This document shows, one piece after another, positions 8,971-47,767 of a stretch of DNA of 64,000 nt. The position numbers were made by a program, and so were the translations under genes. Origin of the DNA: an uncultured Actinomycetes bacterium (GTDB lineage Bacteria; Actinomycetota; Actinomycetes; S36-B12; UBA10799). The notes beneath the pieces were generated by a model. The model had not been told where the DNA came from, searched no databases, and saw only the letters and a program-made list of their open reading frames with translations. The stretch spans positions 1,863 to 65,862 of the forward strand of contig CAZJNU010000006.1 of assembly GCA_964547485.1 (NCBI GenBank). The letters are read 5' to 3'. The first letter of the stretch is position 1. Every line of letters starts with the position of its first letter.

Positions 8971-8980
8971 GGTGTCTCTG

Positions 8981-13231: not shown

Positions 13232-14542
<1,311 letters not shown>

Positions 14543-19602: not shown

Positions 19603-19604
19603 GG

Positions 19605-20591: not shown

Positions 20592-21564
20592 CGAGCGCCA
20601 ACTCCTTCTTGTCGCCGAGGATCCCTTGCGGCCGATAGATCATCAGCAGCATCAGCGAGGCCCCGAGGATCCAGTAGCGCACCTGACCGACCTGGTCGCT
20701 GCGGATGAAGCTGATGGTGCCATCCTGCACAGCCCCGGCCAACGCGCCGTCGATGAACACCAGCAGGAACCAGAACACGATTGCGCCGAGCACCGGCCCG
20801 AGCACCCGGCCGGCACCACCCAGGATCAGCACCGCGTAGGCAAAGAAGGTCAGGTCGGTGGCGAAGAAGTCCGGTTGCACCGACTGGAACGCGACCGCGG
20901 CGACGAAGCCACCGAAGCAGCCGAGCACGCCGCCCAAGATCAGCGATTGCATCTTGTAGAAGTAGACGTTCTTGCCGAGGCTGCGGACCGCGTCCTCGTC
21001 TTCCCGGATTGCCTTGATCACGCGACCCCACGGGGCACGCATCAGCAGGAACACGAGAACGCAGCAGGCAGCCACCAGCAGCCAGCCGATGGTGACGACC
21101 CACAGATCGTTCGCGCTGAGGTCGATCGGACCCATTTTCAGCGGCTGCGAATACGGCGACAATTCGTAGAACTCGTCGGCGAACTTGTTGAGGCCGTCGG
21201 ACCCACCGAAGATCTCCCGGAAGGTCACCGAGCGCACCAACAACCGGATGATCTCGGCTGCGGCGATGGTGACGATCGCCAGGTAGTCGGCCCGCAGTCG
21301 GAGCGTCGGCAGACCGAGCAGCAGCGCCAACAGCACGGCGGCGACGATGCCGACGATGATGCCGATCCAGAGCGGCAACCCGAGGAAGACGATGGTGACG
21401 CCGAGGCCATAGGCGGCAACCGCGAGGAAGCCTGCCTGCCCGAAGTTGAGCAGGCCTGTATACCCGAAGTGCACGTTCAGGCCGATCGCAGCCAGCGCGA
21501 AGATCACCGCCTGCACACCCAAGCCCTGGGTGATGGCCTGGCTGAAGATGTTTCCCCAGTCCAT
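20581..21564 (-). CDS. livM: ABC transporter permease (LivM-like)
   Basis: Multi-TM protein with GYTGLLNFGQAGFLAVAAY. Overlaps the livG start. Confidence 0.9.
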   Translation of the reverse strand: MDWGNIFSQAITQGLGVQAVIFALAAIGLNVHFGYTGLLNFGQAGFLAVAAYGLGVTIVFLGLPLWIGIIVGIVAAVLLALLLGLPTLRLRADYLAIVTIAAAEIIRLLVRSVTFREIFGGSDGLNKFADEFYELSPYSQPLKMGPIDLSANDLWVVTIGWLLVAACCVLVFLLMRAPWGRVIKAIREDEDAVRSLGKNVYFYKMQSLILGGVLGCFGGFVAAVAFQSVQPDFFATDLTFFAYAVLILGGAGRVLGPVLGAIVFWFLLVFIDGALAGAVQDGTISFIRSDQVGQVRYWILGASLMLLMIYRPQGILGDKKELALDAR

Positions 21565-21577
21565 GTCCGCGCCCCCT

Positions 21578-22891
21578 CTACCCGACCCGCTCGCGTCGAC
21601 CGAGGATGCCCTGCGGTCTGACGAGGAGGATGAGAATGAGAATGACCAGTGCGCCCACGTTCTTCAACTCGGGCGGAACGAACAGGGTGGATAGCTGAAT
21701 CATCAGTCCCACGATCAGCGAGCCCACCAATGCCCCGAAGGCTGTGCCGAGTCCTCCCAGGGTGACGCCGGCGAACACGAGGAGCAGCATCGAGAAGCCC
21801 TCCAGCCAGTTCACGCCGTTGCTCAGGCTGTAGAGGATGCCGGCCAGCGCGGCGAGCCCGGCGCCGAGGATCCACACCTGGTTGATGACCCGCTCGACGT
21901 CGATCCCGGAGGCGCTCGCCAGCGCCGGATTGTCGGAGATCGCGCGACTCGCCTTGCCGCTCTTGGTGCGCAGCAACCAATAGGCGGTCGCAAGCAGGAA
22001 CAGCAGTGCCACCACGGCACCGACCGCAGCCTTCGGGGTGATCACGATCGGGCCCAGCTCGATTCCCGGCTGGCCACTGAAGGACGCGTATTGTCGAGTC
22101 GAGCCGCCGAAGAAGAACAGGTAGACGTACCGCACCAGGATGCCGAAACCGATCGAGACCACCAGCATCGCAATCAGGCCGGTGCCCCGGCGGCGCAGGT
22201 TGCGCCACAGCAGTCGGTCCTGCAGGGCACCGGCGATTCCACAGACCACAACCGCCGCTGCAGCGGCGAACACGAACGGCCAACCCAGGATGTTGTTGAA
22301 GAAGTACGCCGCCAACGCGCCGAGGGTGATCAACTCGCCGTGGGAGAAGTTCGTGAGGCCGGTCGTGCCGTAGACCAGGGAGAGTCCGATAGCTGCCAAC
22401 GCGATGATCAGGCCGAATAGCAGGCCGTCGACGGTGAGCTGCAGCGCCTGATTGGACGAGGGCTGGTCGCCTTCGTCTGGACCGGTTCCGCTGGAGGTGG
22501 GGAATAGCACCGATGAGGTTCGACCGGTGAAGACATCCACGGTCCGGCTGGATTGGCTGGTGTTGCGCAGGCTTACCCCCGGCGGCAGGGTCTGCTGATC
22601 GAGGCTCACGGTGTATTCGCCGCCGGTCGGCAATGGGACTTCCCAGACCCCCACCTTGTTGGTGCTGACGGTCTTTGTGAAGGCGCCCTCGACGGTGGTC
22701 TTACCGTTGACGGTGAGGTCCTCGGCGTTGGTCACCGTGATTTTCACACCAGCCACCGGCTGCTTGTCCGGGCCGATGATGAGGCCCTTGAGTGCGGTGG
22801 GCTCGTCGGCCGCCATCGCCGGGGCCGCACCCACCAGGACACAGAGGGCAGCCAGCAGGGCGCCCACGACCGCGGCGATGCGTGCTCGCAC
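21578..22891 (-). CDS. livH: ABC transporter permease (LivH-like) carrying an N-terminal signal peptide plus about 120-aa extracytoplasmic domain
   Basis: The core starts near LTVDGLLFGLIIALAAIGLSLVYGTTGLTNFSHGE (about aa 150). The N-terminus MRARIAAVVGALLAALCVLVGAAPAMA is followed by a beta-rich segment (GLIIGPDKQPVAGVKITVTN...GGEYTVSL). Confidence 0.88.
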   Translation of the reverse strand: MRARIAAVVGALLAALCVLVGAAPAMAADEPTALKGLIIGPDKQPVAGVKITVTNAEDLTVNGKTTVEGAFTKTVSTNKVGVWEVPLPTGGEYTVSLDQQTLPPGVSLRNTSQSSRTVDVFTGRTSSVLFPTSSGTGPDEGDQPSSNQALQLTVDGLLFGLIIALAAIGLSLVYGTTGLTNFSHGELITLGALAAYFFNNILGWPFVFAAAAAVVVCGIAGALQDRLLWRNLRRRGTGLIAMLVVSIGFGILVRYVYLFFFGGSTRQYASFSGQPGIELGPIVITPKAAVGAVVALLFLLATAYWLLRTKSGKASRAISDNPALASASGIDVERVINQVWILGAGLAALAGILYSLSNGVNWLEGFSMLLLVFAGVTLGGLGTAFGALVGSLIVGLMIQLSTLFVPPELKNVGALVILILILLVRPQGILGRRERVG

Positions 22892-31320: not shown

Positions 31321-31785
31321 GTGGGCATGGCCATCGATTTCGAGACAGTGCGCACGAGTATGCCGACCGCCGTCCCCATGATGGGAACGCTGAACATTAA
31401 GTTTCTGGAGCTGGAATCGCAACGGTGTCTGCTCCGGTTGCCCGACAGTGCGGAATATCACAATCACATCGGTGGCCCCCACGCCGGCGCGATGTTCACG
31501 CTGGCCGAGTCCGCATCCGGTGCCCTGGTGCTGACGAATTTCGGGGATCGCCTTGCCGAGGCGACGCCGCTGGCGGTGGAGGCGACGATCCGCTACCTGA
31601 AGGTGGCGATGGGTGACGTTACTGCAGAGGCCACGATGGCCAGTGACCCTGCGGACGTACTCGCCGAACTGGCCGCCGGCAGCCGGCCGGAATTTGAGGT
31701 GGTGGTCACGATCCGTGACCGCGACGGTGTCGACACCGGCATCATGACGGTGCTGTGGACGCTCCGGCCGAACCGCCGGAGGTAG
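31321..31785 (+). CDS. hotdog-fold protein (PaaI/DUF4442-like)
   Basis: NHIGGPHAGAMFTLAESASG pattern, 154 aa. Confidence 0.62.
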   Translation: MGMAIDFETVRTSMPTAVPMMGTLNIKFLELESQRCLLRLPDSAEYHNHIGGPHAGAMFTLAESASGALVLTNFGDRLAEATPLAVEATIRYLKVAMGDVTAEATMASDPADVLAELAAGSRPEFEVVVTIRDRDGVDTGIMTVLWTLRPNRRR

Positions 31786-32356
31786 CTCCGGCGACCCTGG
31801 CGGCCAGGCCGAGCGGATCGGCGAACTCCACCCCTGGCTCTGTCGCCAGTGCCCGCACGAGCACCGGCTGCGAGACAAGCGCCGGGTCGACCGCGAGCAC
31901 CCGGCCACCCGCGGCCAACACCTGTCGAGCGCCCGCCAACCCGTCGTTGTTCGCACAGCTGAGCCCCACCACGGTGGCAGCGGAACCGAAGGCGTCGGCG
32001 GCGCTTTCGAAGGCGGAATCGATCGACGGAATGCTGTAGCTCTGGCGCGGTTCCGACGACAGCGTCGGCCCACTGCGGCCGATCAGCGTGTGGTACCCCG
32101 GGGGGGCCAGGTAGACCTGATCCGGTCGGTAGTAGGTCAGGTCCTCAACCTCGACAACCTCCAGCCGACCCACCCGACCCAGTCGATGGGCCAGTGCGGC
32201 GCCGGCCCGGACGTCCATCCCGCGGTGCAGGATGAACACCACCGGAATTGCCAGCAACGGCGGAAGCTTGGTCAGAATCGCTTCCACCTGACCCATCGAG
32301 CCAGCGCTGCCGCCGATGACGACCACCCCGTCGGCCTCTGCCCGGGTGGTCACCAC
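31742..32356 (-). CDS. cheB: CheB-type protein-glutamate methylesterase, catalytic domain only (no receiver)
   Basis: VVIGGSAGSMG (Ser), VVFILHRGMD (His), IPSIDSAFESAA (Asp). The GTG GTG at 32356/32353 overlaps the cheR stop (GTGA). Confidence 0.8.
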   Translation of the reverse strand: MVTTRAEADGVVVIGGSAGSMGQVEAILTKLPPLLAIPVVFILHRGMDVRAGAALAHRLGRVGRLEVVEVEDLTYYRPDQVYLAPPGYHTLIGRSGPTLSSEPRQSYSIPSIDSAFESAADAFGSAATVVGLSCANNDGLAGARQVLAAGGRVLAVDPALVSQPVLVRALATEPGVEFADPLGLAARVAGATSGGSAGASTAPS

Positions 32357-33195
32357 TTCCGCCGATAGAGCCGGGAGCGCTGGTCGATCGTGTCCAGTTG
32401 TCGGGCATGCGCCGAACCGCGAGAGGACTCCCGAGAGCCGAGCCCAAGCACGCCGCCTGGGACCAGCGACTCGAACAGAATCTCGTGCACCCGGGCGTGC
32501 AGTTCGGCGTTGAAGTAGATCAGCACATTGCGACACAAAATGAGATCGAACGAATTGAAGCTGGCATCGGATGCGAGGTTGTGCCGGGCGAAAACGATGC
32601 GCTCGCTGAGCGTCCGGTCGAACAGGGGTTCCTCGCCGGTCGACCCGCCGCCGGAGATTGGGAAGTAGTCGGCCAGGGCTGCGGTGCCGCCGCTTGCGAG
32701 GTAGTCATGGTTTCCGGCTGAGATACGGTCCGGAGCGACGAAACCGGCGCGCGCCTGGGCGAGGGACTGCTCGTTGATGTCGGTTGCGTAGATCCGGAAC
32801 CGCTGTGGTGACAACCCGCTCTCGACGAGGGTGATGGCCAACGAGTAGGCCTCCTCGCCGGTGGCCGCACCCGCCACCCAGGCGCGGACCAGGGTGCGGG
32901 AGTCGAAGGCCGGCAGCACGTCCGAACGCAGTGTGGCCCACATGCCTGGATCTCGGAACAGGTGGGTGAAACCCAGGCTCAGGGAGTCGATGACATCATC
33001 GACCAGCAGCGGGTTCTCCCCGACCCGCGCGGCCAACTCTGTGACGCCGCCGTTCATCCGGTGGCGGTCGGCGACGCGCCGGAGTCGCCGGATCACGAAC
33101 GGGCGTTGGTAATTGTTGAAGTCGGCGCCGCGGGTGGCCAGCACGGCAGCCAGCACGTGATCGACCGCGCCGTCGAGTTCAGCGGGTTCGAGCAC
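32350..33195 (-). CDS. cheR: CheR-type protein-glutamate O-methyltransferase
   Basis: THLFRDPGMW, RAWVAGAATGEEAYSLAI, IYATDIN, ILCRNVLIYF. Overlaps the kinase gene end by 17 nt. Confidence 0.85.
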   Translation of the reverse strand: MLEPAELDGAVDHVLAAVLATRGADFNNYQRPFVIRRLRRVADRHRMNGGVTELAARVGENPLLVDDVIDSLSLGFTHLFRDPGMWATLRSDVLPAFDSRTLVRAWVAGAATGEEAYSLAITLVESGLSPQRFRIYATDINEQSLAQARAGFVAPDRISAGNHDYLASGGTAALADYFPISGGGSTGEEPLFDRTLSERIVFARHNLASDASFNSFDLILCRNVLIYFNAELHARVHEILFESLVPGGVLGLGSRESSRGSAHARQLDTIDQRSRLYRRKW

Positions 33196-36100
33196 CGAGC
33201 CACACCCGGATCAGGGACACCAACTGTTCGGCATCGATTGGCTTCGTCAGGTAGTCCGAGGCCCCCGAGGCCAGGCTCCGGGCCCGGTCCTCCGGCATGG
33301 CCAAGGCGGTCACGCTGATCACCGGAAGTTGCGCCGTCGCGGGGTTGGACCGGATTCGCCGGGTGGCCTCCAGCCCATCCATCACCGGCATCATTACGTC
33401 CATCAGTACAAGTTCCACGTCACCACGTTCGGCGAGCACGGCCAGTGCCTGCTGGCCATCCTCGGCGTCCAGGACCTCCATCTCGTGTTGCTCCAGGATC
33501 GTTGCAAGAGAGAAGACATTCCGTGGATCGTCGTCGACAACCAGCACCACCCGGCCGGCCAGGTCGGGGTCCCGTTCGTAGAGCGCGGCCACCATCTGCT
33601 GCTGCTCGGCAGGCAGATCGGTCGAGACTCGATGCAGGAACCGAATCGTCTCGTCGATGAGTCGGGCATGGGCACTTTGATCCTTGGCGATCACTGCGCT
33701 CGCCACATGTTTCAACTCCGCCAGCCCGCCGGTGCTTTCGTCCGGGTCGTAGAACACGATCAACGGCAGGGACTGGCTGAGCGGTTCCTCACGCAGTGCC
33801 CGCAGCACGGACTGACCATCGTCACCCGCGGTCGCCAGGTCCACCACGACTGCGTCGAATCCTCGTTCCCTTATCGCGGGCAGAGCTGTCGTCACATCGG
33901 TGAACACCTGCACGTCAAGGTCGCCGCCGCGCAGTAGTGACGAAACGGCGGTCGCCTCATCGGGGTCCGACTCCACGACTACCACCCGCCGCGGCTGACC
34001 TGCCAGCATCTGGGTGAACCTGTGCAGCACCCCGGCGATGTCGGCCGCCGCAGCCGGCTTGATGAGGGTGCCATTGACGCCCAGCGCTGCCAGCGCGGAC
34101 TCTGAACCGGAGATTATCTGCACCGGCGTGTGCCGGGTCTGCTGGTCGTGTCGAATCCGATCGAGGAGTACCCAACCGTCCATGTCCGGCAAACCGAGGT
34201 CGAGCGTGATCGCATCGGGGGCGCGTGCCGCGAGGAATTCCAGCGCCTGCTGGCCGCTGCCCGCGATCTCGGTGTGGAACCCCAGAGCACGCGCCTCGTC
34301 CGCGATCAGCGAGGCGAACAACGGGTCATCCTCAATGATCAAAAGAACCGAGCCAGCTGGATCGACTGTCTCCGGCTGAGTCTGACTTTCAGCGCCGGGT
34401 CGGACTTCGGTCACGGGGGTTGGCACAGGCATCTCTACACTTGCGGCCGCTGCTGGCGGGTGGAGAAACGCCGATCCGCTCCCAGCTGGTCCGTCAGCAG
34501 CAGGTGGAGCAGCCGTGGCCATCTGGCCGCTGTCTGTCGATGCGGCAGGAGGGCCTGCGATAGGCAGCGTTAATTCGAACTGCGAACCGACCCCCTGCTC
34601 GCTTCGGACGACGAGGTCGCCGCCCATCTTCCGTGCCAGTTCCTGCGCGATCGACAGTCCCAGTCCCGTACCGGCGGTGGTGTGGCCGCGGGCGTTACCC
34701 AGTTGTTTGAACGGTTCGAACACCGCGGCGAGGTTTTCCTCGGCGATCCCGGACCCGGTGTCAGCAACTGTGAAGGAGACGAATTCGCCACTGACCGCGA
34801 CCGTCAGGTCCACTGATCCCACGATCGTGAACTTCACCGCATTGGACAGCAGGTTCTTCAGGATCTGCTCGACTCGTAGCCGATCTGACACGATCGAATC
34901 CGGCGTACCCGGACTGACGCTGATCCCCAGCTGGAGTCCCTTCTCCTCGGCAAGGGGTCGGAACTGGCGGTTCAGCGCTGCGCAGACGGCCTCGATCGGC
35001 ACCTGTTCGGCAGCAATGTCGATCTTCCCCGCCTCCACCTTTGACAGGTCGAGGACATCGTTGATCAACGCCAGCAAGTCCTTGCCGCAGGCGTTGATGG
35101 TGGCCGCGAATTCCACCCGACGCTCCACCGGAAGCGACTCCGGACTCTTCACGAGCCGCTCGCTGAGGATGAGCACGCTGTTCAACGGAGTACGCAATTC
35201 GTGCGACATCTTGGCCAGGAAGGCCGACTTGTAGGCCGAGGCCTGGTCCACGATCTCGGTGCGGAGCAGCAGATCCTGGTGCGCCTGCTCAAGTGCCACA
35301 TTGCGCTCGGCGAGGGCGGCCTGCTGTTCCTCCATCAGCGCGGCCCCCTCCTCCAGGCCTACATTGGCGTCCTCCAACTCCCGTGACTGCGACTCCAGTT
35401 CCTCCGTCTGAGACTGCAGCTCCTCTGCCTGGGCCTGGAGTTCCTCGGACTGCGCCTGTGCCTCCTCGAGGAGTTCAAGGGTCCGTTGCTGAGCGTGGCG
35501 GACGGCCAGGTGCAGTCCGATCAGGTCCGCCGACTGGGTCAGCACTTCGCGGGCTTCGGCCTCGAAGGTCCCGAATGTGGCGACCTCCAAAACGCCCAGG
35601 GTCTTTCCGCCTGCGACGCAGGGGATCACCGCAATCTGGGCGGGCTTCGCGGCGCCAAGAGCTGACTCGACAGTCAGATAGTCGGCTGGAGCCGCCATGA
35701 ACCTGGCCTGCTGATCTGCGGCTGCCTGGCCCACCAGCCCCTCGAGGAATGCGATCCGCTCGGGAACCCGGTGACCGTCGCTGGCTCCGACAGCCGCGAC
35801 CCGGACCAGCGTCTGTTGGTCAGTCCGCGCCGTCTCATACAGCACTGCGGTAGGGGCCTCGGCGGACATGGCCAGCAGCGTGAGTACCTCGTCGTCAGCC
35901 GTGCTGGCATCGCTCTCGCCCTGCATGCTGCGGCTGATCCCGAGCAGGGTCTCCTGCACCCGATCGTCGGCATCCCGGGCGTCCCTGGCGCCGGCGAGCG
36001 ATGTTCGCATCGCGTCGATCTTCGTGCCGAGTGAACCCAATTCGTCTCGACCAGTGACGGTCACCGGCGAGTCGAGCTTGCCCGCGCCGATGAGGTCGGC

Positions 36101-36775
36101 ACTGCCCTCCAGCAACTTGAACCGGCGTGACAGGTTGCGCCCCAGGATGACCAGCAGGATCGTGCTGCTGGCCGCAATCAACAGCAGTACGCCGTAGAGG
36201 ATGTACTGGGTTGTGGTGAGCTCGTCGGAGAGCTCTGTCGAGATCCGATCTCTGATTCCCTGTGCATGTTCGACGTTGATGAACTGGTCGAGTTCCTGCG
36301 TGAGCTGGTCATGAGTTGCAGGATTCTGCGCGACGGCGATGAACGGCTGCAGGACGGAACGCGGCGCCTCGCCGGTTGCCACCCGGTCGGCCGCCGTGAG
36401 CGCAGGGTCGACGGTCCCATCCACCCAGGACTGCACCGAGGCGAAGACCGCTGCGTCCTGGGATGTCGGATCAGTCGCAATTACATTCGAGATCGCCTGG
36501 TCGATCCTGTTGATCTCCTCCTTGGCGCGTGCTCGCCAGACGGGATTGAGTGTCGTCAGGTAGTCGGTGCGGGCGGCGTCGAGGCTCTCCACCGCCAACT
36601 GCATCGCGCGCAACTCGCGGACGTCGGAGGTGGCCACGGTCAGTTGGTCATTCAGTTGCTCGGCCCGGCCGACCGCACTGATCGCGACCGCGCCGCCAGC
36701 GGCACCCAGCAGCAGCGTGCAGCCCAGCACCAGGCCAACCTTCACCGGGATCTTCCGGTTGTCCAGCCAACTCAT
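33179..36775 (-). CDS. hybrid sensor histidine kinase: TM, helical extracytoplasmic sensor, TM, HAMP, GAF, coiled coil, HisKA, HATPase, three receiver domains
   Basis: Two TM segments flank a helical domain of about 170 aa. HAMP region (RRFKLLEGSADLIGAGKLDSPV). H-box FLAKMSHELRTPLNS. N/G boxes NLLSNAVKF and DTGSGI, GTGLGLSI. Receivers at LLIIEDDP..., VVVVESDP... and VLVVDDDP...MDVMMPVMDG. Confidence 0.9.
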   Translation of the reverse strand: MSWLDNRKIPVKVGLVLGCTLLLGAAGGAVAISAVGRAEQLNDQLTVATSDVRELRAMQLAVESLDAARTDYLTTLNPVWRARAKEEINRIDQAISNVIATDPTSQDAAVFASVQSWVDGTVDPALTAADRVATGEAPRSVLQPFIAVAQNPATHDQLTQELDQFINVEHAQGIRDRISTELSDELTTTQYILYGVLLLIAASSTILLVILGRNLSRRFKLLEGSADLIGAGKLDSPVTVTGRDELGSLGTKIDAMRTSLAGARDARDADDRVQETLLGISRSMQGESDASTADDEVLTLLAMSAEAPTAVLYETARTDQQTLVRVAAVGASDGHRVPERIAFLEGLVGQAAADQQARFMAAPADYLTVESALGAAKPAQIAVIPCVAGGKTLGVLEVATFGTFEAEAREVLTQSADLIGLHLAVRHAQQRTLELLEEAQAQSEELQAQAEELQSQTEELESQSRELEDANVGLEEGAALMEEQQAALAERNVALEQAHQDLLLRTEIVDQASAYKSAFLAKMSHELRTPLNSVLILSERLVKSPESLPVERRVEFAATINACGKDLLALINDVLDLSKVEAGKIDIAAEQVPIEAVCAALNRQFRPLAEEKGLQLGISVSPGTPDSIVSDRLRVEQILKNLLSNAVKFTIVGSVDLTVAVSGEFVSFTVADTGSGIAEENLAAVFEPFKQLGNARGHTTAGTGLGLSIAQELARKMGGDLVVRSEQGVGSQFELTLPIAGPPAASTDSGQMATAAPPAADGPAGSGSAFLHPPAAAASVEMPVPTPVTEVRPGAESQTQPETVDPAGSVLLIIEDDPLFASLIADEARALGFHTEIAGSGQQALEFLAARAPDAITLDLGLPDMDGWVLLDRIRHDQQTRHTPVQIISGSESALAALGVNGTLIKPAAAADIAGVLHRFTQMLAGQPRRVVVVESDPDEATAVSSLLRGGDLDVQVFTDVTTALPAIRERGFDAVVVDLATAGDDGQSVLRALREEPLSQSLPLIVFYDPDESTGGLAELKHVASAVIAKDQSAHARLIDETIRFLHRVSTDLPAEQQQMVAALYERDPDLAGRVVLVVDDDPRNVFSLATILEQHEMEVLDAEDGQQALAVLAERGDVELVLMDVMMPVMDGLEATRRIRSNPATAQLPVISVTALAMPEDRARSLASGASDYLTKPIDAEQLVSLIRVWLGARTR

Positions 36776-37815
36776 GACTGCCGGCCTTCGCCAGACTCTT
36801 CCGCACCGGAGATGACCAGGCCGGAGCCCGCCTTCTTCGCCTCATACATGGCCCGGTCGGCCGCCGCCAGGATCTGGTCGATCGTGACGTTGTGGGACGC
36901 GAGGTGCAGAGCGAGGCCGACGCTGCCCGGTGCCGCAACGAATCGGCCGTCACTGAGTTGGTAGTCGGCGGCGAGCGCCCCGTGGATCCGCTCGCCCATA
37001 CTTGCGAGGTCGTCGTCATCCTGGATCTCCTGCACGACGACGCAGAACTCGTCACCGCCGAGCCGGGCCACCAGGTCGTACGGTCGCGCGATGCCGCGAA
37101 GTCGGCCTGCAGCCAGCACCAGGACCTCATCACCCGCCGCATGGCCCAGCGTGTCGTTGATCGTCTTGAATCCGTCCAGATCGATCACTGCCACCCCGTG
37201 ATGGCGGCCGGAGCGCTGCTGGTGGGCGCGGACTGCCGCCAGCGAATTCATCAGTTGCCGACGATTCATCAGGGAGGTGAGTGGGTCTGTCGCGGCAAGC
37301 AACTGCAAGTTCGCGTTGGCCTCCGACAATTGCTGTTCAATCGCCCGAAGCCGATCCCGTTGCCGTTCGATTTGCTTCAACTGTTGGGCGAGGGTGCAGA
37401 AGACGTTGACCTTTGACTGCAGAATCTGCGGTACGACCGGCTTCGACAGGTAGTCCACCGCCCCCAGGTCGTACCCGGCCGACATCGCGTCGTCATTGAA
37501 CGCGTACCCGGTGACGAACAGGATGGGTGTCGTTGCCAGTCGAGGATTTGCCCGGACCAGGCCGGCGAGCTCGAACCCCGTCATGTCGCCGAGGTTGACA
37601 TCGAGCAGGATCGCCGCAGGTGTGGTCTTGCGCAGCAGCCGCAGCGCTTCCGTTCCGGATGCGGCGAACACCAGTTCCCGGTCCGGTTCGGCGAGCAGAT
37701 CGCCGATGAGCAGATTGGCGTTGGGATCGTCATCGATCACCATCACCACGACGGGATCGATCGGCTCGGTTGGTGCCTCCGACTCAGCCACCTGTGACCC
37801 TTTCGATCGTGCCAC
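36772..37815 (-). CDS. response regulator with GGDEF diguanylate cyclase output
   Basis: Receiver VVMVIDDDP...LLDVNLGDMTG...KP. GGDEF active site RLGGDEF with an RPYD (RxxD I-site) 5 residues upstream. The stop overlaps the kinase start (ATGA). Confidence 0.9.
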   Translation of the reverse strand: MARSKGSQVAESEAPTEPIDPVVVMVIDDDPNANLLIGDLLAEPDRELVFAASGTEALRLLRKTTPAAILLDVNLGDMTGFELAGLVRANPRLATTPILFVTGYAFNDDAMSAGYDLGAVDYLSKPVVPQILQSKVNVFCTLAQQLKQIERQRDRLRAIEQQLSEANANLQLLAATDPLTSLMNRRQLMNSLAAVRAHQQRSGRHHGVAVIDLDGFKTINDTLGHAAGDEVLVLAAGRLRGIARPYDLVARLGGDEFCVVVQEIQDDDDLASMGERIHGALAADYQLSDGRFVAAPGSVGLALHLASHNVTIDQILAAADRAMYEAKKAGSGLVISGAEESGEGRQS

Positions 37816-39100: not shown

Positions 39101-40042
39101 TCATCCTGCGACGGGAGCTGCTTGCTGTTGCGGTGCGCGGGCAGTCGGTCCGCCGCTGGCAATCCGATCGCGCAGCATCGCCCGATCGATGGCGACGCCG
39201 TCAGTGGACTCCAGGAATCCCAACACAGTCCTGGCGAATCGCGCCGGCTCATCCATGTGCGGGAAATGCCGCGACTGCTCGAAGATCTCCAATTGGCTGC
39301 CCGGGATCGCCTGGTGAGCCGCATAGGCGTGGGAGACCGGGATGAGGGTGTCCAACGCACCCCAGACAATCAGAGTGGGGCGACCCTCGCCGAGGTAGAG
39401 CCGGTCGGCTGCGCTGACACGCTGGCCACCTGGTTCGACCACACTGCGCAGCGAGTGCACGAACGCCGTCCGGGCAGGTCCGTCTGCCAGTGACGCGTAG
39501 CCGCGTGCCACCTCGGCCACCGATGGCCGGGGTCGAATCGGGACTCGCCGAAGCAGGCGGCCGACTGCCACCCCAGCGTCGCGGACCCGGCGATTGGCGA
39601 TCACCGGCAGGACGAACTCGGCGCCGGGCAGGGTGGCGGCCCGCAGCGCCGGGGTCACCTCGCGGCCGAGACCGCCACTATCCACCAGCACTACCCGCTC
39701 GCAGTACTCGCTGTACTGATAGGCGAATTGCAGAGCCACGCCGCCGCCGAGGGAGTGCCCGACGATGGTGACCCGATCGTGGCCGAGGTGTTCCAGCAGG
39801 TCGCGCAGGCCGCTAGCGAACCCGCCAAGGGAGTAGTCGGTGCGGGGCTTGTCCGACTCGCCATGGCCCAACAGATCGGGCGCGATCACGTGCGCGTGCT
39901 CTGCCAATGCCGGGATCACCGGGTCCCAGGTGGCGCTGCTGCTGGTGATCCCATGAATCATCAGCAGCACGGGCAGGTTGGGGTCGCCCGCGACTCGGTA
40001 CACCATTCTGTGCCCGTGCAGGGTCACCTCTGTCTGTTGCAT
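39101..40042 (-). CDS. alpha/beta-fold hydrolase
   Basis: LLMIHGITSSSATW, nucleophile elbow GHSLGG, 313 aa. Confidence 0.85.
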   Translation of the reverse strand: MQQTEVTLHGHRMVYRVAGDPNLPVLLMIHGITSSSATWDPVIPALAEHAHVIAPDLLGHGESDKPRTDYSLGGFASGLRDLLEHLGHDRVTIVGHSLGGGVALQFAYQYSEYCERVVLVDSGGLGREVTPALRAATLPGAEFVLPVIANRRVRDAGVAVGRLLRRVPIRPRPSVAEVARGYASLADGPARTAFVHSLRSVVEPGGQRVSAADRLYLGEGRPTLIVWGALDTLIPVSHAYAAHQAIPGSQLEIFEQSRHFPHMDEPARFARTVLGFLESTDGVAIDRAMLRDRIASGGPTARAPQQQAAPVAG

Positions 40043-40181
40043 GGCGACCTCCTATTGCTGGTCATCCCAGCAGACCATGCCAGCGGCGCCTGCCGACACC
40101 CGGGGGTCGCGGTTGCCCCGGACGCAACGGCGCAGCAGGCCGGTTAGCTGCCGAATTAGTCACAGTCTAGAGTCAATCCCT

Positions 40182-42548
40182 GTGGCAAATAGATCACTGT
40201 TCACACGGGGAAGCTCCAGCGACTGGCCACGAGCAGTTCGACTGCTTCCGTTGGCCGCGGCGATCGCCTCCTACGTCTTGATCGTCTTTGGCAGTCATGT
40301 CCGCGTCAGCGAATCGGGGATGGGGTGCCCCGACTGGCCACTGTGCTACGGCCAGCCAGGGCCAATCCTGGAGTTTCACGCCTTGATGGAACAGGGACAT
40401 CGCTATCTAGCAGCCGTGGTCTCACTGTTGGTGCTGGTAACCGCAGTCCTGGCGTTCTGGTATCGACGTTCACGCCCGGCAGCGGTTCGGCCAGCGATGT
40501 TCACGGTGGTCATGCTGGGTGTTCAGGTACTGCTCGGGGCCGTCACAGTGTTCGCCGGCAATGGGTCGCCGACGGTGGCTCTGCACCTCATCGGGGGCCT
40601 TTCGCTGCTGGCCGGGGCCACGGTCACGGCGCTCTGTGTGTTCCTCCCCAAGGTCCAAGTCGCCGGTGCTCGGCTGCGTCGGCTGGCGTGGGCCGGTGTT
40701 GCGGCAGTGGCACTGCTCGTTACCTCAGGGTCGTTGATCGTCGACGCTGCGGTCGAGGGTCTGTGCCCCAGCATTCCGTTCTGTCCGGCGGGCAGCTCTG
40801 GGGCCGAGACAATGCTGCATGTGGGCCACCGCAGCGTGGCGTTGGTGACCGGGGTGGTGGTCTGGGCGCTCGCGATCCACGCCTGGCGACAGTGGTCCGG
40901 GGTGCGCGGGGCCCGCCCACTGGCGGTCCTTTCCGCGGGCATGATCCTCCTCACCGCCGCAATCGGCGTCACCTCTGCCCTACTGATGGCACCCCCGGAA
41001 TGGGCAGACCTTCACCTGGCAGGTGCCGCTGCGGTGCTGGTGAGCGTCGTGAGTCTGACGACACTCGGCTGGCTGTCGGGGGCAGACGCTGTCGGTGATG
41101 GCACCGGAGGGCGGGGTGACCAAATCGTGGCAGCCTCGCCCGACGACCACCGCCCGGCCACCTCCAGGACCAGGGTTCGCGATGGTGTGCTGGTGTCTGC
41201 GCTCACGGTCGTCCTTGTTGCCATCGGCTACCTCATGGGGGCCCAGCAGGGAGCAGCCAATCCCTCCGATCCCGAGGCCGGGTCCGCCAGCGCTGCCGTG
41301 ACTCCAACCGGTCACACGACCATGGCGGAGGTCACGATCGAGGATATGCGTTTCGTCCCCGATCTGATCGAGGTGCCAGCGGGGGACACACTAGAGATTC
41401 GGCTGGCCAACCACGACGATCGCGACCATGACCTCGTACTGGACTCGGGTCAACGAACGGCCCGGCTGGCCACCGGAAGCACCGAGACCCTCAGCGTCGG
41501 AGTTGTGACGGACCCGATTGAAGGGTGGTGTTCGATTGCTGGCCACCGATGGCTGGGAATGGCACTGAAAGTGGCAGTCATCGGAGGTTCGCCACCCAGT
41601 GATGCCGACTCCGAGGCACCCCACGGTTCCGGATCCCACAAGATGCCGATGGCCACGGCTTCGGGGGATGAGGTTGGTGACCTGGATCTGATGGCCTCGC
41701 CTGAGGCGACTTTTGCCGCGCACAATCCGGCACTCGCGCCGTCCACTCGGCAAGCAGTACACAGGGTCCGGCTTCCGGTGACCCAGCGTGAGTACGAGGT
41801 CGCCCCCGGGGTGCGACAGACACGCTGGACGTTCGCCGGGTCGGCACCGGGGCCGACACTTCGCGGAAGGGTGGGCGACAAATTCGAAATCACACTGATC
41901 AACCGAGGCGACATCGGGCATTCGATCGACTTCCACGCCGGCGCGCTTGCCCCGGATCGTCCAATGCGCACCATCGAGCCCGGACAGGAATTGCGCTACA
42001 ACTTCACCGCCACCAAGGCAGGAATCTGGCTCTACCACTGTTCAACCATGCCAATGTCGATGCATATCGCCAATGGCATGTTCGGTGCGGTGATAATCGA
42101 CCCGCCTGACCTTCCGGAGGTCGACAAGGAGTTTCTGCTGGTGCAATCCGAGTTGTACCTTGGACCGCAAGACGGCACCGCAGACCCGTCCGACATCGCT
42201 TCTGAACACCCTGATCTGGTGGTGTTCAACGGGTACGCCAATCAATATGACCATCGGCCGTTGCAGGTGGGCAGAGGCGAGCGGATCCGCATCTGGGTAC
42301 TGGCAGCCGGACCGAACCGGGGCAGTGCTTTTCACATCGTGGGCGGTCAGTTCGACACGGTCTACGCCGAAGGCAGCTACCTGCTGCGCCCAGGCACTTC
42401 CGTCGGCGGTTCGCAGGTGCTCGGATTGGCCACAGCTCAAGGCGGGTTCGTCGAAACCACCTTGCCCGAACCCGGCAGGTACCCGTTTGTGTCGCACACC
42501 ATGGCCGATGCCGAACGAGGAGCCCACGGGGCGGTGGTGGTCCGATGA
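40182..42548 (+). CDS. fusion protein: COX15/CtaA-like polytopic heme-binding membrane domain, cupredoxin domain, and NirK-like two-domain multicopper nitrite reductase
   Basis: N-terminus GSHVRVSESGMGCPDWPLCYGQ plus repeated His in TM helices (GHRYL, ALHLIGG, HVGHRS, DLHLAG). Middle VTIEDMRFVPDLIEVPAGDTLEIRLANHD. C-terminus GHSIDFHAG and LYHCSTMPMSMHIANGMFGAVIIDP (type 1/type 2 Cu ligand pattern of NirK). The GTG at 40182 avoids overlap with the divergent hydrolase gene. Confidence 0.8.
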   Translation: MANRSLFTRGSSSDWPRAVRLLPLAAAIASYVLIVFGSHVRVSESGMGCPDWPLCYGQPGPILEFHALMEQGHRYLAAVVSLLVLVTAVLAFWYRRSRPAAVRPAMFTVVMLGVQVLLGAVTVFAGNGSPTVALHLIGGLSLLAGATVTALCVFLPKVQVAGARLRRLAWAGVAAVALLVTSGSLIVDAAVEGLCPSIPFCPAGSSGAETMLHVGHRSVALVTGVVVWALAIHAWRQWSGVRGARPLAVLSAGMILLTAAIGVTSALLMAPPEWADLHLAGAAAVLVSVVSLTTLGWLSGADAVGDGTGGRGDQIVAASPDDHRPATSRTRVRDGVLVSALTVVLVAIGYLMGAQQGAANPSDPEAGSASAAVTPTGHTTMAEVTIEDMRFVPDLIEVPAGDTLEIRLANHDDRDHDLVLDSGQRTARLATGSTETLSVGVVTDPIEGWCSIAGHRWLGMALKVAVIGGSPPSDADSEAPHGSGSHKMPMATASGDEVGDLDLMASPEATFAAHNPALAPSTRQAVHRVRLPVTQREYEVAPGVRQTRWTFAGSAPGPTLRGRVGDKFEITLINRGDIGHSIDFHAGALAPDRPMRTIEPGQELRYNFTATKAGIWLYHCSTMPMSMHIANGMFGAVIIDPPDLPEVDKEFLLVQSELYLGPQDGTADPSDIASEHPDLVVFNGYANQYDHRPLQVGRGERIRIWVLAAGPNRGSAFHIVGGQFDTVYAEGSYLLRPGTSVGGSQVLGLATAQGGFVETTLPEPGRYPFVSHTMADAERGAHGAVVVR

Positions 42549-44057: not shown

Positions 44058-44696
44058 CTACCGCCGCGGCGCCCAAAGCGGGTAAGGCAAACCTGCGAGG
44101 CGGTTGATCGCCAGCCCTTCCAGGATCATCAGCACCACCGCGATCATCAGGATCAGCAACTGCTCCGGGGTCCGCATCAGGCCGAGGGCCACGATCAGGG
44201 TCGTCGCGCCTGCCGGCGCGTGCGGCACCCCCAGCCAGACCATGAACGACAGGGTCAGGCACAGTGCGACGGTGGCAGCCCCCACCCGAGGCCAGGTGAC
44301 ATCCTCGAGGTCCGGTGCCACCGTCGTCAGTCCAAAGATGAGTAGAGCCAGAAAGCCCGCGACCACCCCGATCAGATGCCCGCAGAAGACGTTGCGAGGG
44401 GCCGCCTGATCACCGAGCGCGGCGAAGAAGAGCAGGAATGCGGTGGGCCCGAGTGACGGGAACACGAAAGGCTGGTCGGTTACCGCCGCGATGCTGGAGA
44501 GCACGGCGATGGAGATTGCGGAGTTGATCAGAACATAGGCGCCGAGTACGATCCGGTTGTTGTGCCGCGTTTGCAGCCCCTTGAGGCCGAACCGGGTGGC
44601 CAGTCCGTGTACCTGTGCTGGCAGGTCGCCGTAGGGTCCTCGAGGTTCGCCGCCAGCTACTCCGGACGCCTCGATCCGAGCCTGCTCATTCGTCAT
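44058..44696 (-). CDS. HPP-family integral membrane protein
   Basis: Polytopic, with FPSLGPTAFLLF and VPHAPAGATTLIVALG (HPP-like motif). Lies 25 nt downstream of narI on the same strand. Confidence 0.68.
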   Translation of the reverse strand: MTNEQARIEASGVAGGEPRGPYGDLPAQVHGLATRFGLKGLQTRHNNRIVLGAYVLINSAISIAVLSSIAAVTDQPFVFPSLGPTAFLLFFAALGDQAAPRNVFCGHLIGVVAGFLALLIFGLTTVAPDLEDVTWPRVGAATVALCLTLSFMVWLGVPHAPAGATTLIVALGLMRTPEQLLILMIAVVLMILEGLAINRLAGLPYPLWAPRR

Positions 44697-44721: not shown

Positions 44722-45474
44722 TCAGTCTCGACCGATCGTCTGCCAACGCCGGGACGTTCCCGGATTGGGGATGTGAGCAGCTGCCCTGCTCCGGTAGACG
44801 ATGTACGGCCGGGTCAGATAGAACACGGGGGCACTGAAGGCGTGCACCAACCGCCCCCAGGGGAAGAGCGCGAAGAAGAGCCAGGCGATGGTCACGTGGA
44901 CCTGATAGATCGTCGGCGCACCGACCATCAGCGAAGGGTCCGGCTGAAGGTAGAACAGGCTGCGGAACCATTCACCGACCGTCGGACGGTAGTTGTAGCC
45001 GGGACCGAAGATGTTGTAGCCCACGGTCTCGGCCATTCCCAGCAGGATCATGATCCACAGGATTATGAAGGTCATCAGGTCGGTCCAGGTGGTGGCGCTG
45101 CGCACTCGGGGATTGTGGAGTCGGCGCGCGGTGAGTATCGCCAGCCCGGCCACGCACAGCACCACCGCGAATCCGCCCGCATACTTCGACACGGAGGCGT
45201 ATAGGGATTCGTTGATACCGAAGAACTCAGTCCAGGATTCGGGTATCAAGATGCCGAGCACATGCCCGGCGATTGCCAGCAGCGCGCCGTAGTGGAACAT
45301 CATCGCGCCGATGATGAGCCACTTCTTTTCATACAGTTCCGAGGACCGGCTGCCCCATCCGTACTTGTCGAACCGATATCGCCACACCAGCCCGACGACG
45401 AAAACGGAAATCCCGATGTAGGGCAGGATTCCGAAGAGCAACCAGTCCCAGGTGCTTGCGGTGGAATCGGTCAT
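44722..45474 (-). CDS. narI: respiratory nitrate reductase gamma subunit
   Basis: WDWLLFGILPYIGISVFVVGLVWRYRFDKYGW...MMFHYGALLAIAGHVLG, 250 aa. Confidence 0.93.
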   Translation of the reverse strand: MTDSTASTWDWLLFGILPYIGISVFVVGLVWRYRFDKYGWGSRSSELYEKKWLIIGAMMFHYGALLAIAGHVLGILIPESWTEFFGINESLYASVSKYAGGFAVVLCVAGLAILTARRLHNPRVRSATTWTDLMTFIILWIMILLGMAETVGYNIFGPGYNYRPTVGEWFRSLFYLQPDPSLMVGAPTIYQVHVTIAWLFFALFPWGRLVHAFSAPVFYLTRPYIVYRSRAAAHIPNPGTSRRWQTIGRD

Positions 45475-46130
45475 CTGCGGGCCCCGCTCACGCTGGCGTT
45501 CTCAATCTGGTACACGTCCAACCCAACCGACTCCTCGGGCGGGCCCTCAGCGGCCAGCGACACCACTGCGGCAAGATCGGCGTCGTCGAGTCGGGGTAGC
45601 ACGGCGAGTACGGCAGCGATCAACGGCGCGAAAGGGTCGTCGAAATCGGCCAGGGAGCGACGCAACAGTTCCAATGACCGCCGATGTGATCCCAGCAACC
45701 GGATCCCGCGGGGTTCGTCGGCCGCGAACTCCAACAGCAGCGGAAGGTAGTCCGGGAGTTCCCCGCTGCTGATGTCGTAACCGTGTCGTAGGAGTACATG
45801 TTTGATCTGCAGGAGCGCGGCCCCCCGATTGCGGGTATCGCCATGAGTGAGGTACGTCAGATGCAGGGGAGTTCTGCGTCGGAAGTCGAACGCGGCGACG
45901 TAACGTTGTTCGCGCTCGTCGGCGGGTAGTGCGACCCACCAAACCGTAAATGATGTAAGGGCATCGGCGGCGCCCCCGGCAGGCAATTGCCGTGACCGAA
46001 CAATCAGATCGGGGTAGAGCGCGACCGTGTCCGGCGTCGGGTAATCCAGCAAGACCGAAACGATCGACAACAGCGTGGATGTTCCCGCCGGGTCGAGTGA
46101 TCGCCGGGAGGACCTGCGCAGGATGCTCAT
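45471..46130 (-). CDS. narJ: nitrate reductase molybdenum cofactor assembly chaperone
   Basis: Position between narH and narI. The ATG at 46130 overlaps the narH stop. LLDYPTPD...YVAAFDFRRRTPLHLTY pattern. Confidence 0.85.
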   Translation of the reverse strand: MSILRRSSRRSLDPAGTSTLLSIVSVLLDYPTPDTVALYPDLIVRSRQLPAGGAADALTSFTVWWVALPADEREQRYVAAFDFRRRTPLHLTYLTHGDTRNRGAALLQIKHVLLRHGYDISSGELPDYLPLLLEFAADEPRGIRLLGSHRRSLELLRRSLADFDDPFAPLIAAVLAVLPRLDDADLAAVVSLAAEGPPEESVGLDVYQIENASVSGARR

Positions 46131-47767
46131 AACGCACCTGCCTGACCGAACGGGTTGCCCGTGGTCAGCTCGCCGTTCCACCCGAGCAGGTTGAACCGTT
46201 TGTTGCCGTCCCCGTCGACAAAGATGCTGCCACTGCCGTCTGTCGCCGGGATTCCTCCGGAACCCAACCCGCGAAACTCTGCGCCCTGACCCTGCCCGAC
46301 GAGTGCTTCGGCGACTCCGGGGCCGCCAGGGAAGTCCAGGCTGCAGTGCTGCGTCTGCAGTGCACCGGCGTCCTCGCGGTGAGCGGTCGGGATGACGTAT
46401 CGGTCTCGGTACTCGCCCACCGCCAGCAGTCGGAACAACTTCTCAACGTCATCGTCATCGAATCCGACGGCAGCGAGGAGGTCGTCGGGCACATCCTCAC
46501 CGAACTGCATGGCCCGCTTGACTGCCCGCAGCACCGTAAGTCTCCGCAGAGCGTCGCGCACCGGAGCCGCATTTCCGGCCGAGAAGATCGAAGCGAGGTA
46601 GTCGATGGGAATTCGCAGATTCTCGATCCCCGCCAGCACCTTCTGGGTGTCGTCGGCATCGAAACCGGCATCGGCGGCATTATCGGCCATTGGAGCAAGC
46701 GGAGGGACGTACCAGACCATCGGCATCGTGCGGAACTCGGGATGCAGCGGAAGCGCCACCCGCAAATCCTTGGCCAAAGCGTAAACCGGTGAGTTCTGAG
46801 CCGCCTGCAACCAGTCGAACGGCACGCCACTGCGCTCTGCGGCACGGAGGACCTCTGGGTCGCGCGGATCCAACATTACGCGTCGATGGGCCTCGACGAG
46901 GTCGTGCGCCTCAGGGGTCTGGGCCGCGGCCGTCACCGCGTCCACGTCATACAGGACCACGCCGATGTAACGGATACGGCCGACGCAGGTCTCCGAACAA
47001 ATGGTTGGCTGACCATCCTCGATCCGGGGGTAGCAGAACGTGCACTTCTCGGCCTTGCCGCTGACGTGGTTGAAGTAGACCTTCTTGTAGGGGCAGCCCG
47101 ACACGCACATCCGCCAGCCGCGACAGGCATTCTGATCGACCAGCACGATCCCGTCCTCGACGCGTTTGTACATGGCGCCCGAGGGGCAGGAGGCGACACA
47201 TGCCGGGTTAAGGCAGTGGTTGCAGATCCGGGGGAGGTAGAACATGAACACTTGCTCATACTCAAGCTGCGCCTGCTGTCCCAGGGAGGCTGCGTTCGGG
47301 TCCTGCTGGAAGCGCTCGTTGGTGCCGGCGAGGTTGTCATCCCAGTTGGGTCCCCAGGTGAGCTTCAACGGCTCTCCGGTCAACCGGGATCGGGATTGGA
47401 CGACGGGGGAGTGTTCCTGCAGCGGAGCACTGACCAGGTTGGCGTATTCGTAGGTCCACGGCTCATAGTAGTCGTCGATTTGAGGCAGGTCGGGATTGCC
47501 GAAGATGCTGAGCAGTTTGCGGATTCGGCCGCCGGCCTTGAGTTTGAGTCGGCCCTTGCCGTCCAGGGCCCAGCCGCCCTTCCAGTGTTCGTTGTCCTCC
47601 CACCGCTTGGGATAGCCGACCCCAGGTTTGGTCTCAACGTTGTTGAACCACACGTAGTCGGTACCCGAACGGTTGGTCCATGCTTGTTTGCAGGTGACGC
47701 TGCAGGTGTGGCACCCGATGCATTTGTCCAGCGCCATCACCATCATCAGTTGCGCCCGCACCCGCAT
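46127..47767 (-). CDS. narH: respiratory nitrate reductase beta subunit
   Basis: MALDKCIGCHTCSVTCK and further Fe-S Cys clusters, 546 aa. Confidence 0.97.
   Translation of the reverse strand: MRVRAQLMMVMALDKCIGCHTCSVTCKQAWTNRSGTDYVWFNNVETKPGVGYPKRWEDNEHWKGGWALDGKGRLKLKAGGRIRKLLSIFGNPDLPQIDDYYEPWTYEYANLVSAPLQEHSPVVQSRSRLTGEPLKLTWGPNWDDNLAGTNERFQQDPNAASLGQQAQLEYEQVFMFYLPRICNHCLNPACVASCPSGAMYKRVEDGIVLVDQNACRGWRMCVSGCPYKKVYFNHVSGKAEKCTFCYPRIEDGQPTICSETCVGRIRYIGVVLYDVDAVTAAAQTPEAHDLVEAHRRVMLDPRDPEVLRAAERSGVPFDWLQAAQNSPVYALAKDLRVALPLHPEFRTMPMVWYVPPLAPMADNAADAGFDADDTQKVLAGIENLRIPIDYLASIFSAGNAAPVRDALRRLTVLRAVKRAMQFGEDVPDDLLAAVGFDDDDVEKLFRLLAVGEYRDRYVIPTAHREDAGALQTQHCSLDFPGGPGVAEALVGQGQGAEFRGLGSGGIPATDGSGSIFVDGDGNKRFNLLGWNGELTTGNPFGQAGAL

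Follow-up and report, generated by a model that had tools for sequence, protein, structure and literature searches.

Heptad-spaced glutamate doublets on the signalling helix of an RsbK/CfcA-type histidine kinase as likely methylation sites of a neighbouring CheR

The stretch of DNA analysed here, 64,000 nucleotides in length and referred to as the window, carries on its minus strand four genes with overlapping stops and starts. They code for a REC-GGDEF response regulator, a hybrid histidine kinase of the type of Bacillus cereus RsbK and Pseudomonas putida CfcA, a methyltransferase of the CheR type and a methylesterase of the CheB type. At issue is a coiled-coil segment of the kinase with regularly spaced pairs of glutamates, termed the EE-heptad motif, which an earlier reading of the sequence (the original prediction) had proposed as the substrate of the two enzymes. 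The features of the locus, in window coordinates, are as follows.

36772 to 37815, minus strand: REC-GGDEF response regulator, 347 amino acids (Pfam Response_reg 4.4e-19, GGDEF 1.9e-39)
33179 to 36775, minus strand: RsbK/CfcA-type hybrid histidine kinase, 1198 amino acids (open reading frame (ORF), Pfam and end-to-end homology), starting with transmembrane segment TM1, an extracellular sensor and transmembrane segment TM2
35996 to 36145, minus strand: HAMP domain of the kinase
35507 to 35845, minus strand: GAF domain of the kinase, followed by the signalling helix
35147 to 35518, minus strand: continuous predicted alpha-helix, the signalling helix, residues 420-543 (AlphaFold2)
35369 to 35473, minus strand: EE-heptad motif, residues 435-469, consisting of the heptads LLEEAQA, QSEELQA, QAEELQS, QTEELES and QSRELED
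35441 to 35443, minus strand: E445, candidate methyl-accepting glutamate and, like the candidate E438 before it, second of its pair
35420 to 35422, minus strand: E452, candidate methyl-accepting glutamate, second of its pair
35399 to 35401, minus strand: E459, candidate methyl-accepting glutamate
35378 to 35380, minus strand: E466, candidate methyl-accepting glutamate
35027 to 35230, minus strand: HisKA domain of the kinase (Pfam HisKA)
34559 to 34885, minus strand: HATPase domain of the kinase (Pfam HATPase_c)
34004 to 34348, minus strand: first receiver of the kinase, REC1
33626 to 33988, minus strand: second receiver of the kinase, REC2, residues 930-1050
33191 to 33550, minus strand: third receiver of the kinase, REC3
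32350 to 33195, minus strand: CheR-type protein-glutamate O-methyltransferase, 281 amino acids, counterpart of RsbM/CfcB (Pfam CheR 1.2e-34)
31742 to 32356, minus strand: CheB-type methylesterase, 204 amino acids, counterpart of CfcC (Pfam CheB_methylest 1.9e-29)

Reverse-complement translation of window positions 35369-35482 yields TLELLEEAQAQSEELQAQAEELQSQTEELESQSRELED, i.e. residues 432-469 of the kinase, which lie between the GAF domain (residues 311-423) and HisKA (residues 516-583) as called by Pfam. The coordinates and the sequence given by the original prediction were confirmed, with the addition of the minus strand, which it had left unstated. Glu-Glu pairs occupy positions 437/438, 444/445, 451/452 and 458/459 and are followed by R465-E466, with a spacing of exactly seven residues throughout and an exact fit to xEELxxQ in three heptads of the coil. 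When the coil was shuffled 100000 times with its composition preserved, just 5 shuffles had at least as many EEL..EEL heptad pairs as the sequence itself, and the autocorrelation of Glu, Leu and Gln along it was highest at lags 7 and 14. Translation, spacing, shuffle test and autocorrelation thus agree that the heptad-spaced motif is real. Relative to the phospho-accepting His525, the candidate residues E438, E445, E452, E459 and E466 are found at minus 87, 80, 73, 66 and 59, respectively. The doublets share one face of the helix and, with the small residue in front of them assigned to core position a and Leu to d, occupy positions b and c. When residues 425-520, the coil by itself, were searched against the database, 30 candidates came up, none of them significant, probably due to the low-complexity composition of the query.

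In the kinase as a whole, Pfam recognised HAMP, GAF_2, HisKA, HATPase_c and three REC domains and called no CHASE3 in the sensor, and NCBIfam returned merely generic names below threshold (TorS, BarA, HrmK) and no RsbK-specific model. A search with the HAMP-GAF-coil-kinase part retrieved about 8000 relatives of around 40% identity from many phyla, in which the same coil and the H-box YKSEFLANMSHELRTPLNS come after CHASE3-GAF or HAMP-GAF, and in essentially all of which heptads of the xEELQxQ type open the coil. The window kinase has both hallmarks of this family, the H-box YKSxFLAxMSHELRTPLNS and xEEL heptads in register with the histidine. Inspected by eye, REC1 and REC3 look canonical; REC2, in which the Thr/Ser expected after strand 4 is missing (PLIVFYDP) and ESDP stands in place of DD in the acidic pocket, may be a pseudo-receiver.

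Modelling with AlphaFold2 on an alignment of the family (alignment A1) gave a mean predicted local distance difference test score (pLDDT) of 92, with 95-98 across the motif, and a helix spanning residues 2-125 of the modelled fragment. Leaving the end of GAF, this helix takes in the EE heptads and His525 (35201-35203) without a break and then forms DHp helix 1, after which the model continues with the DHp turn and helix 2. Since it is one straight, unbroken helix, we placed the motif on a signalling helix leading to the catalytic histidine and rejected a hairpin of the kind found in methyl-accepting chemotaxis proteins (MCPs). In position and helicity the coil resembles the S-helix module (Anantharaman, Balaji and Aravind 2006), which is described as a heptad helix linking a sensory to an output domain and having conserved polar residues at its centre, but with about 95 residues it is over twice as long as the canonical version of roughly 40. 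Differences in the length of the signalling helix between family members, both in alignment A1 and in the coils of the loci described below, were multiples of seven (7, 14, 21 and 28), so that the number of xEEL heptads varies while their register to the phospho-accepting histidine is kept.

The stop codon of the REC-GGDEF gene overlaps the start of the kinase gene (ATGA), the start of cheR overlaps the kinase stop by 17 nucleotides and the start of cheB overlaps the stop of cheR. The REC-GGDEF protein, whose GGDEF motif (residue 253) is intact and which has an RxxD I-site at 244-247, is likely the output diguanylate cyclase and cognate partner of the kinase. The separate cheR and cheB genes that the original prediction had invoked beside the kinase do exist, both on the minus strand. 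CheR is homologous to the solved structures 5ftw (1.1e-22) and 1af7 (3.8e-14) and 30-40% identical to the CheR proteins that trail family kinases in 29 other loci; it scores 71 bits against the NCBIfam equivalog model for chemotaxis CheR, which has a cut-off of 435, and the exact protein is present solely on two short metagenome-derived contigs. Among its relatives are a single 895-amino-acid CheR-REC-GGDEF-EAL fusion (P0198, a close relative), by which this CheR clade is physically tied to signalling by cyclic di-GMP (c-di-GMP), and CheR-CheB or CheB-CheR fusions (P0217, P0146). CheB, whose gene call is identical on public contigs, consists of the catalytic domain only and keeps the Ser, His and Asp that align, in T. 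maritima CheB, to the motifs GxSxG, QH and xDG; its score, too, is far under the NCBIfam cut-off for chemotaxis CheB. Because a receiver domain is absent from its 204 residues, it is, by domain content, a CheB-family esterase and not a canonical CheB response regulator. The scan of ORFs in the window turned up no MCP, CheA or CheW.

The closest functional precedent came from Firmicutes. The window kinase aligned to an RsbK homologue of Priestia megaterium (P0292) with 31% identity over 816 amino acids (E 1e-96); the aligned region starts at residue 93 in the extracellular sensor and extends to where the kinase core ends, and REC3 aligns as well, being 47% identical to the C-terminal receiver of P0292. 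In this alignment, SEEL/AEEL/TEEL/SREL of the window correspond to TEEL/SEEL/SEEL/SEEL, and the P0292 locus has the layout RsbK-M-Y, i.e. kinase, CheR (RsbM) and RsbY (REC-PP2C). A profile built from Firmicutes relatives retrieved 117 Bacillales homologues; B. cereus RsbK itself was absent from the top 120 matches. Among the homologues are proteins of Priestia megaterium, Lysinibacillus fusiformis and Niallia nealsonii, all of which table S3 of the RsbK paper (PMC4574943) gives as species with RsbK homologues. Their S-helix contains ESQAMTEELQAQSEELQTQSEELQMQSEELRMINEQLEER, a stretch of six Glu/Gln pairs, or twelve residues, with SEEL at His-66 in 99 and at His-59 in 97 of the 117. The heptad that follows the SEEL repeats (His-45) reads NEQL in 84 of the 117, with Gln at the putative methyl-accepting position, similar to Gln-encoded sites of MCPs; the Bacillales loci inspected were without CheB.

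RsbK of B. cereus is a CHASE3-HAMP-GAF-S-helix-HK-REC kinase with His505 as phospho-acceptor, which is methylated in vitro, as measured with 14C-labelled S-adenosylmethionine, by the CheR-like product of the adjacent gene, RsbM; the authors assigned this methylation to the S-helix between GAF and HisKA, reported that both methylation and the C-terminal receiver are required to hold sigma-B off, and stated the occurrence of 127 RsbK-like kinases in 10 phyla (PMC4574943). In a later paper, the genomic association of RsbK with CheR is credited to de Been et al. (PMC12848376). Gene clusters of related composition have been noticed elsewhere. In P. putida, cfcA (kinase), cfcB (CheR) and cfcC (CheB) lie together and it was excluded that CfcB and CfcC take part in chemotaxis (PMC4951495), the same cluster occurs in P. 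brassicacearum and P. alkylphenolica (PMC8175716), and some mycobacteria have rsbK and rsbM homologues with a REC-GGDEF/EAL neighbour (PMC8115616). The principle is thus already published for RsbK/RsbM. Less well known are the CheB-containing and potentially reversible version, the link to a diguanylate cyclase within one operon of a probable actinobacterium and the EE-doublet signature by which CheR-linked and unlinked kinases are told apart.

As to the residues involved, Chen et al. 2012 reportedly mutated twelve predicted sites of RsbK and found Glu439 to be preferred and Glu446 to be minor; the number twelve agrees with the six Glu/Gln pairs of the Bacillales S-helix. Counted from His505, these would presumably be His-66 and His-59, seven residues apart. 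On the window kinase we take them to correspond to E452/E459 by alignment and to E459/E466 by counting from the histidine, a mismatch that is due to a 7-residue insertion downstream. By either mapping, these sites would lie inside the EE-heptad motif.

The association between kinase and CheR was surveyed in both directions. A forward sample comprised 80 loci from GTDB genomes of many phyla, seeded by the kinase, in which CheR and CheB were located by tblastn. Eight of the loci were incomplete and could not be assessed; among the remaining 72, CheR was encoded directly downstream of the kinase in 29, with CheB next in 20, and no CheR was present within 10 kb in 43. A reverse sample comprised 80 metagenome loci seeded by CheR alignment, of which 42 had at least 2.5 kb upstream of CheR. 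In 32 of these 42 a family kinase ends less than 400 nucleotides before CheR and the remaining 10 hold the GAF-coil-kinase core elsewhere in the locus, i.e. all assessable CheR-seeded loci contain a family kinase. The link between the CheR clade of the window and the family kinases therefore holds in both search directions. A 63-residue segment of E. coli Tsr, used as MCP probe with no positive control, matched none of the 160 loci.

For the coils of these kinases, EE doublets were counted in the register His-(59+7n). Kinases linked to CheR had on average 3.4 doublets (median 3), compared to 0.63 (median 0) for unlinked kinases (Mann-Whitney p = 4e-10). After clustering of the kinase cores at 60-80% identity the means were 3.4 and about 1.0 (p 4e-7 to 7e-4), and within the largest cluster they were about 2.6 and 0.6 (means by hand). 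When each of the 29 CheR-linked kinases was compared to its nearest unlinked relative, the number of doublets was higher in 24 cases, equal in four and lower in one. The result was replicated in the reverse sample, where 31 of the 32 kinases preceding CheR carry 2-7 doublets. Unlinked kinases typically show NAEL, SDEL or QKEL instead, with xEL kept and the first Glu lost. Sampling redundancy alone was rejected as an explanation of the correlation, which is reduced by clustering, yet persists after it as well as within the largest cluster and in the CheR-seeded sample. The original prediction had named equal frequency of the motif in kinases from genomes without any CheR/CheB as evidence against itself; this refutation was not borne out, with 3.4 versus 0.6 doublets, compared by gene neighbourhood and not by whole genomes.

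The gene that follows the che gene or genes was also inspected and codes for a REC-(PAS)-HisKA-HATPase protein in all ten other loci checked (L001, L002, L003, L010, L021, L022, L024, L062, L065 and L077), so that the common module appears to be kinase-CheR-CheB-(REC-kinase). The window is without this fourth gene and has the REC-GGDEF gene upstream instead.

On the basis of these data, we consider it very probable that the segment forms the N-terminal portion of the signalling helix in a kinase of the RsbK/CfcA type and that its EE doublets serve as methyl-accepting sites of the co-transcribed CheR. Homology, the RsbK precedent, synteny and the contrast in EE doublets all support reading the segment as a CheR/CheB substrate, as originally proposed, and the computational checks suggested with that proposal all came out in its favour; the mechanism had already been described, in the RsbK/RsbM and cfcABC precedents, which the original prediction had missed. 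In such a mechanism, the signalling helix, a long coiled coil, would pass the HAMP-GAF signal on to the DHp histidine. CheR would esterify the second Glu of at least one pair and thereby neutralise charge along the helix, which may alter the packing of the coiled coil and, by analogy to RsbK, also change how the C-terminal inhibitory receiver docks on the S-helix/DHp region, so that the output of the kinase would be reset. The receiver-less CheB would strip the methyl groups again and, being free of phospho-control, any feedback on it would have to come from the conformation of the substrate. Phosphotransfer to the REC-GGDEF protein encoded upstream would finally lead to synthesis of c-di-GMP. 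The glutamate used, the sign of the effect, the reversal by CheB and the partnership with the GGDEF protein are what we infer.

Several observations weigh against this assignment. The xEL heptads, and also some EE pairs, occur where no CheR adjoins the kinase (locus L020, for instance, has three doublets), and the CheR-linked kinases of L026, L046 and L057 have only 0-1 doublets. The correlation between EE doublets and CheR is partly phylogenetic, as the nearest pairs of opposite status are only 53-67% identical, and linkage was scored by gene adjacency, in which 'no adjacent CheR' differs from 'no CheR in the genome'. The full MCP site consensus is matched by none of the 72 family coils from genome loci and likewise not by the EE heptads, and the substrate would presumably, to judge from the model, be a parallel two-helix coiled coil and not the four-helix bundle of MCPs. 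Lastly, methyl transfer and repression of output have been demonstrated only in B. cereus, and the case for the window protein is argued from its sequence and by analogy.

The comparison with MCPs deserves a closer look. Methylation sites of MCPs follow the consensus [ASTG][ASTG]xx[EQ][EQ]xx[ASTG][ASTG], which is said to go back to Alexander and Zhulin 2007, and the pairs of Tsr and Tar (L-E-E-T, M-E-Q-L) likewise occupy heptad positions b and c. The flanks of the EE heptads, Q[AS]xxEExx[AS]Q, represent half of this consensus, in line with the partial fit, with Gln where Ala/Ser is expected, that had been described before. As a recognition determinant for the family, the consensus was rejected given the lack of matches among the 72 coils. 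Pfam found no MCPsignal domain in the kinase. The earlier comparison to chemoreceptors thus stands with regard to function, but not with regard to the site consensus and the fold, both of which are unlike those of MCPs. Two full matches to the consensus exist in the window kinase, one of which lies in the HATPase domain and is due to chance. The other is the sole match in the coil:

35315 to 35344, minus strand: AALMEEQQAA, residues 478-487

This decapeptide is out of register with the EE heptads and has no conserved counterpart in the family (0/72 coils); with low confidence, its sequence makes it a secondary candidate methylation site. It is located at the 7-residue insertion and register shift that set the window kinase apart from its relatives.

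An alternative explanation that we regard as unlikely is that the motif is only a structural signature of the coil, with Leu in the core and Glu/Gln providing the solvent face and contacts between helices, and that CheR and CheB act elsewhere, be it in the kinase, for example on AALMEEQQAA or one of the receivers, or on a different protein, for example the REC-GGDEF regulator. It would account for the conservation of xEL heptads in family kinases without adjacent CheR and for the fact that AALMEEQQAA fits the MCP consensus and the EE heptads do not, and CheR can indeed methylate a response regulator, namely PhoP of Salmonella (PMC8546571). A purely structural role would not, however, be expected to go along with retention of the first Glu of the doublet beside CheR and its loss elsewhere, and RsbK methylation was assigned to the S-helix (PMC4574943). 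AALMEEQQAA cannot account for the family-wide link to CheR because it is unique to the window kinase and out of register, and the partner regulators vary (GGDEF in the window, PP2C in Bacillales and a REC-kinase in the ten other loci), whereas the coil of the kinase is constant.

It is highly improbable, in our view, that cheR and cheB are ordinary chemotaxis adaptation genes for MCPs encoded elsewhere and that their position next to the kinase is incidental. Both are clearly homologous to the CheR and CheB of chemotaxis, and the gene scan was confined to the 64-kb window. However, cheR overlaps the kinase gene in one operon, the gene order recurs across many phyla in loci that gave no match to the MCP probe, the CheB lacks the receiver that couples canonical CheB to CheA, both enzymes fall far below the NCBIfam chemotaxis cut-offs, and the Pseudomonas counterparts CfcB and CfcC were excluded from chemotaxis (PMC4951495). 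That the periodicity is a functionless artefact of low complexity or recent internal duplication, as the near-identity of SEELQAQ, AEELQSQ and TEELESQ and the variation of coil length by whole heptads might suggest, is scarcely credible given the conservation of the motif and its register to the phospho-accepting histidine in hundreds of homologues across phyla.

With methylation of the signalling helix by CheR as the favoured reading, the locus can be placed among known systems. With RsbK-RsbM of B. cereus (Chen et al. 2012 Environ Microbiol 14:2788; Chen et al. 2015 PLoS One, PMC4574943; de Been et al. 2011 Microbiology 157:3) it shares the order sensor-HAMP-GAF-S-helix-HisKA-HATPase-REC, the xEELQxQ heptads at equal place and register to the phospho-accepting histidine, and a CheR gene directly downstream. 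In contrast to this system, where RsbM was described as an orphan methyltransferase, the window adds a CheB methylesterase; its kinase has three receivers instead of one and no Pfam CHASE3 in the sensor, its putative partner is a REC-GGDEF protein with c-di-GMP as the presumed output instead of the REC-PP2C protein RsbY acting on sigma-B, and its host is probably an actinobacterium. In the cfcABCDE cluster of P. putida, the CHASE3/GAF hybrid kinase CfcA is encoded with CfcB (CheR) and CfcC (CheB) and signals to the GGDEF/EAL regulator CfcR; the order kinase-CheR-CheB and, as predicted for the window, a c-di-GMP output through a REC-GGDEF-type regulator are common to this cluster and the window (PMC4951495, PMC8175716). 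Related clusters are those of BmsA in P. alkylphenolica and of genes 3082-3079 in P. brassicacearum. The Pseudomonas clusters differ in having a REC-HisKA-HATPase gene after cheB, which the window lacks, while the window has its GGDEF regulator within the operon. No report on methylation of CfcA was found in the literature examined.

The MCPs Tar and Tsr have in common with the window kinase heptad-spaced Glu/Gln pairs on one face of a coiled coil, CheR and CheB homologues and, by analogy, modification of the second residue of the pair; the window differs in its single helix feeding DHp, the receiver-less CheB, the unmatched site consensus and the lack of any CheA or CheW found. CheB-CheR-PAS_10 fusions share a coil of NEEL/SEEL heptads and a CheR domain among the closest relatives of the window CheR, but they combine enzymes and coil on one polypeptide and their coil precedes PAS_10 instead of DHp. 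That such fusions contain EEL repeats had been stated earlier and holds for the one example examined, P0270, which is among the 150 closest relatives of the window CheR and has the order CheB-CheR-...-KSTNEELQSANEELQSTNEELMTSKEEMQSLNEELQAVNHEL-PAS_10, with five NEEL-type heptads (EE pairs) in a coil that lies about 190 residues past the CheR domain, immediately before PAS_10. The Wsp system, finally, which is composed of the MCP WspA, the CheR WspC, the CheB WspF, the CheA WspE and the REC-GGDEF protein WspR, also has a REC-GGDEF diguanylate cyclase tuned by methylation, but relies on a genuine MCP, CheW-like proteins and CheA, whereas in the window the methyl acceptor would be a two-component kinase of the classical kind.

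In teaching, receptor methylation is usually presented as peculiar to chemoreceptors. The locus described here is one of a widespread but scarcely studied class that wires CheR, here together with CheB, to an ordinary two-component kinase. It opens no new category, as the work on RsbK/RsbM had already established the principle. If the kinase were reversibly methylated, pathways controlling c-di-GMP, sigma factors or second-tier kinases could share a memory and adaptation similar to those of chemotaxis; no demonstration of reversible methylation or adaptation of CheB-containing members was found in the literature. The EE-doublet signature provides a simple predictor of methyl-accepting kinases and of the residues to mutate, and the operon, which joins the GGDEF regulator, kinase, CheR and CheB on a single transcript, offers a compact system in which the idea could be tested. 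More tentatively, and with slightly less than even confidence, we propose that the locus constitutes a complete, reversible adaptation module in the style of chemotaxis, in which CheR and a receiver-less CheB directly target a two-component kinase at its parallel coiled-coil signalling helix and tune the c-di-GMP synthesis of an actinobacterium, with no MCP, CheA or CheW found in the 64-kb window, and that the number of EE doublets anchored to the histidine is a general sequence marker of 'methyl-accepting histidine kinases' in at least ten phyla.

Apart from this operon, the window, which has a GC content of 65.5%, codes in the other ORFs scanned for housekeeping functions, i.e. aroC-aroB-aroQ-pepQ-efp-nusB, polA, narGHI, lnt and transporters. 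The order of the aro, efp and nusB genes is the one known from Actinomycetota. The respiratory nitrate reductase cluster (molybdopterin, Fe-S and gamma subunits; 44722-51438, minus strand) is adjoined by a gene for an HPP-family membrane protein (44058-44696). A REC-ANTAR antiterminator-type regulator (12427-13104, plus strand) adjoins a gene for a periplasmic binding protein (13232-14542, plus strand), and genes for an ABC transporter of the branched-chain-amino-acid type (18751-22891, minus strand) are located 4-8 kb beyond this pair. Two ORFs of 612 and 554 amino acids (6528-8366 and 8834-10498, both plus strand) have a gene-like third-position GC of 0.78-0.79 and gave no Pfam match at E <= 1e-5. 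A 510-amino-acid pentapeptide-repeat protein is encoded at 55350-56882 (minus strand), and a single ORF of 856 amino acids at 39978-42548 (plus strand) joins COX15/CtaA heme A synthase, cupredoxin and multicopper-oxidase domains in an unusual-looking fusion.

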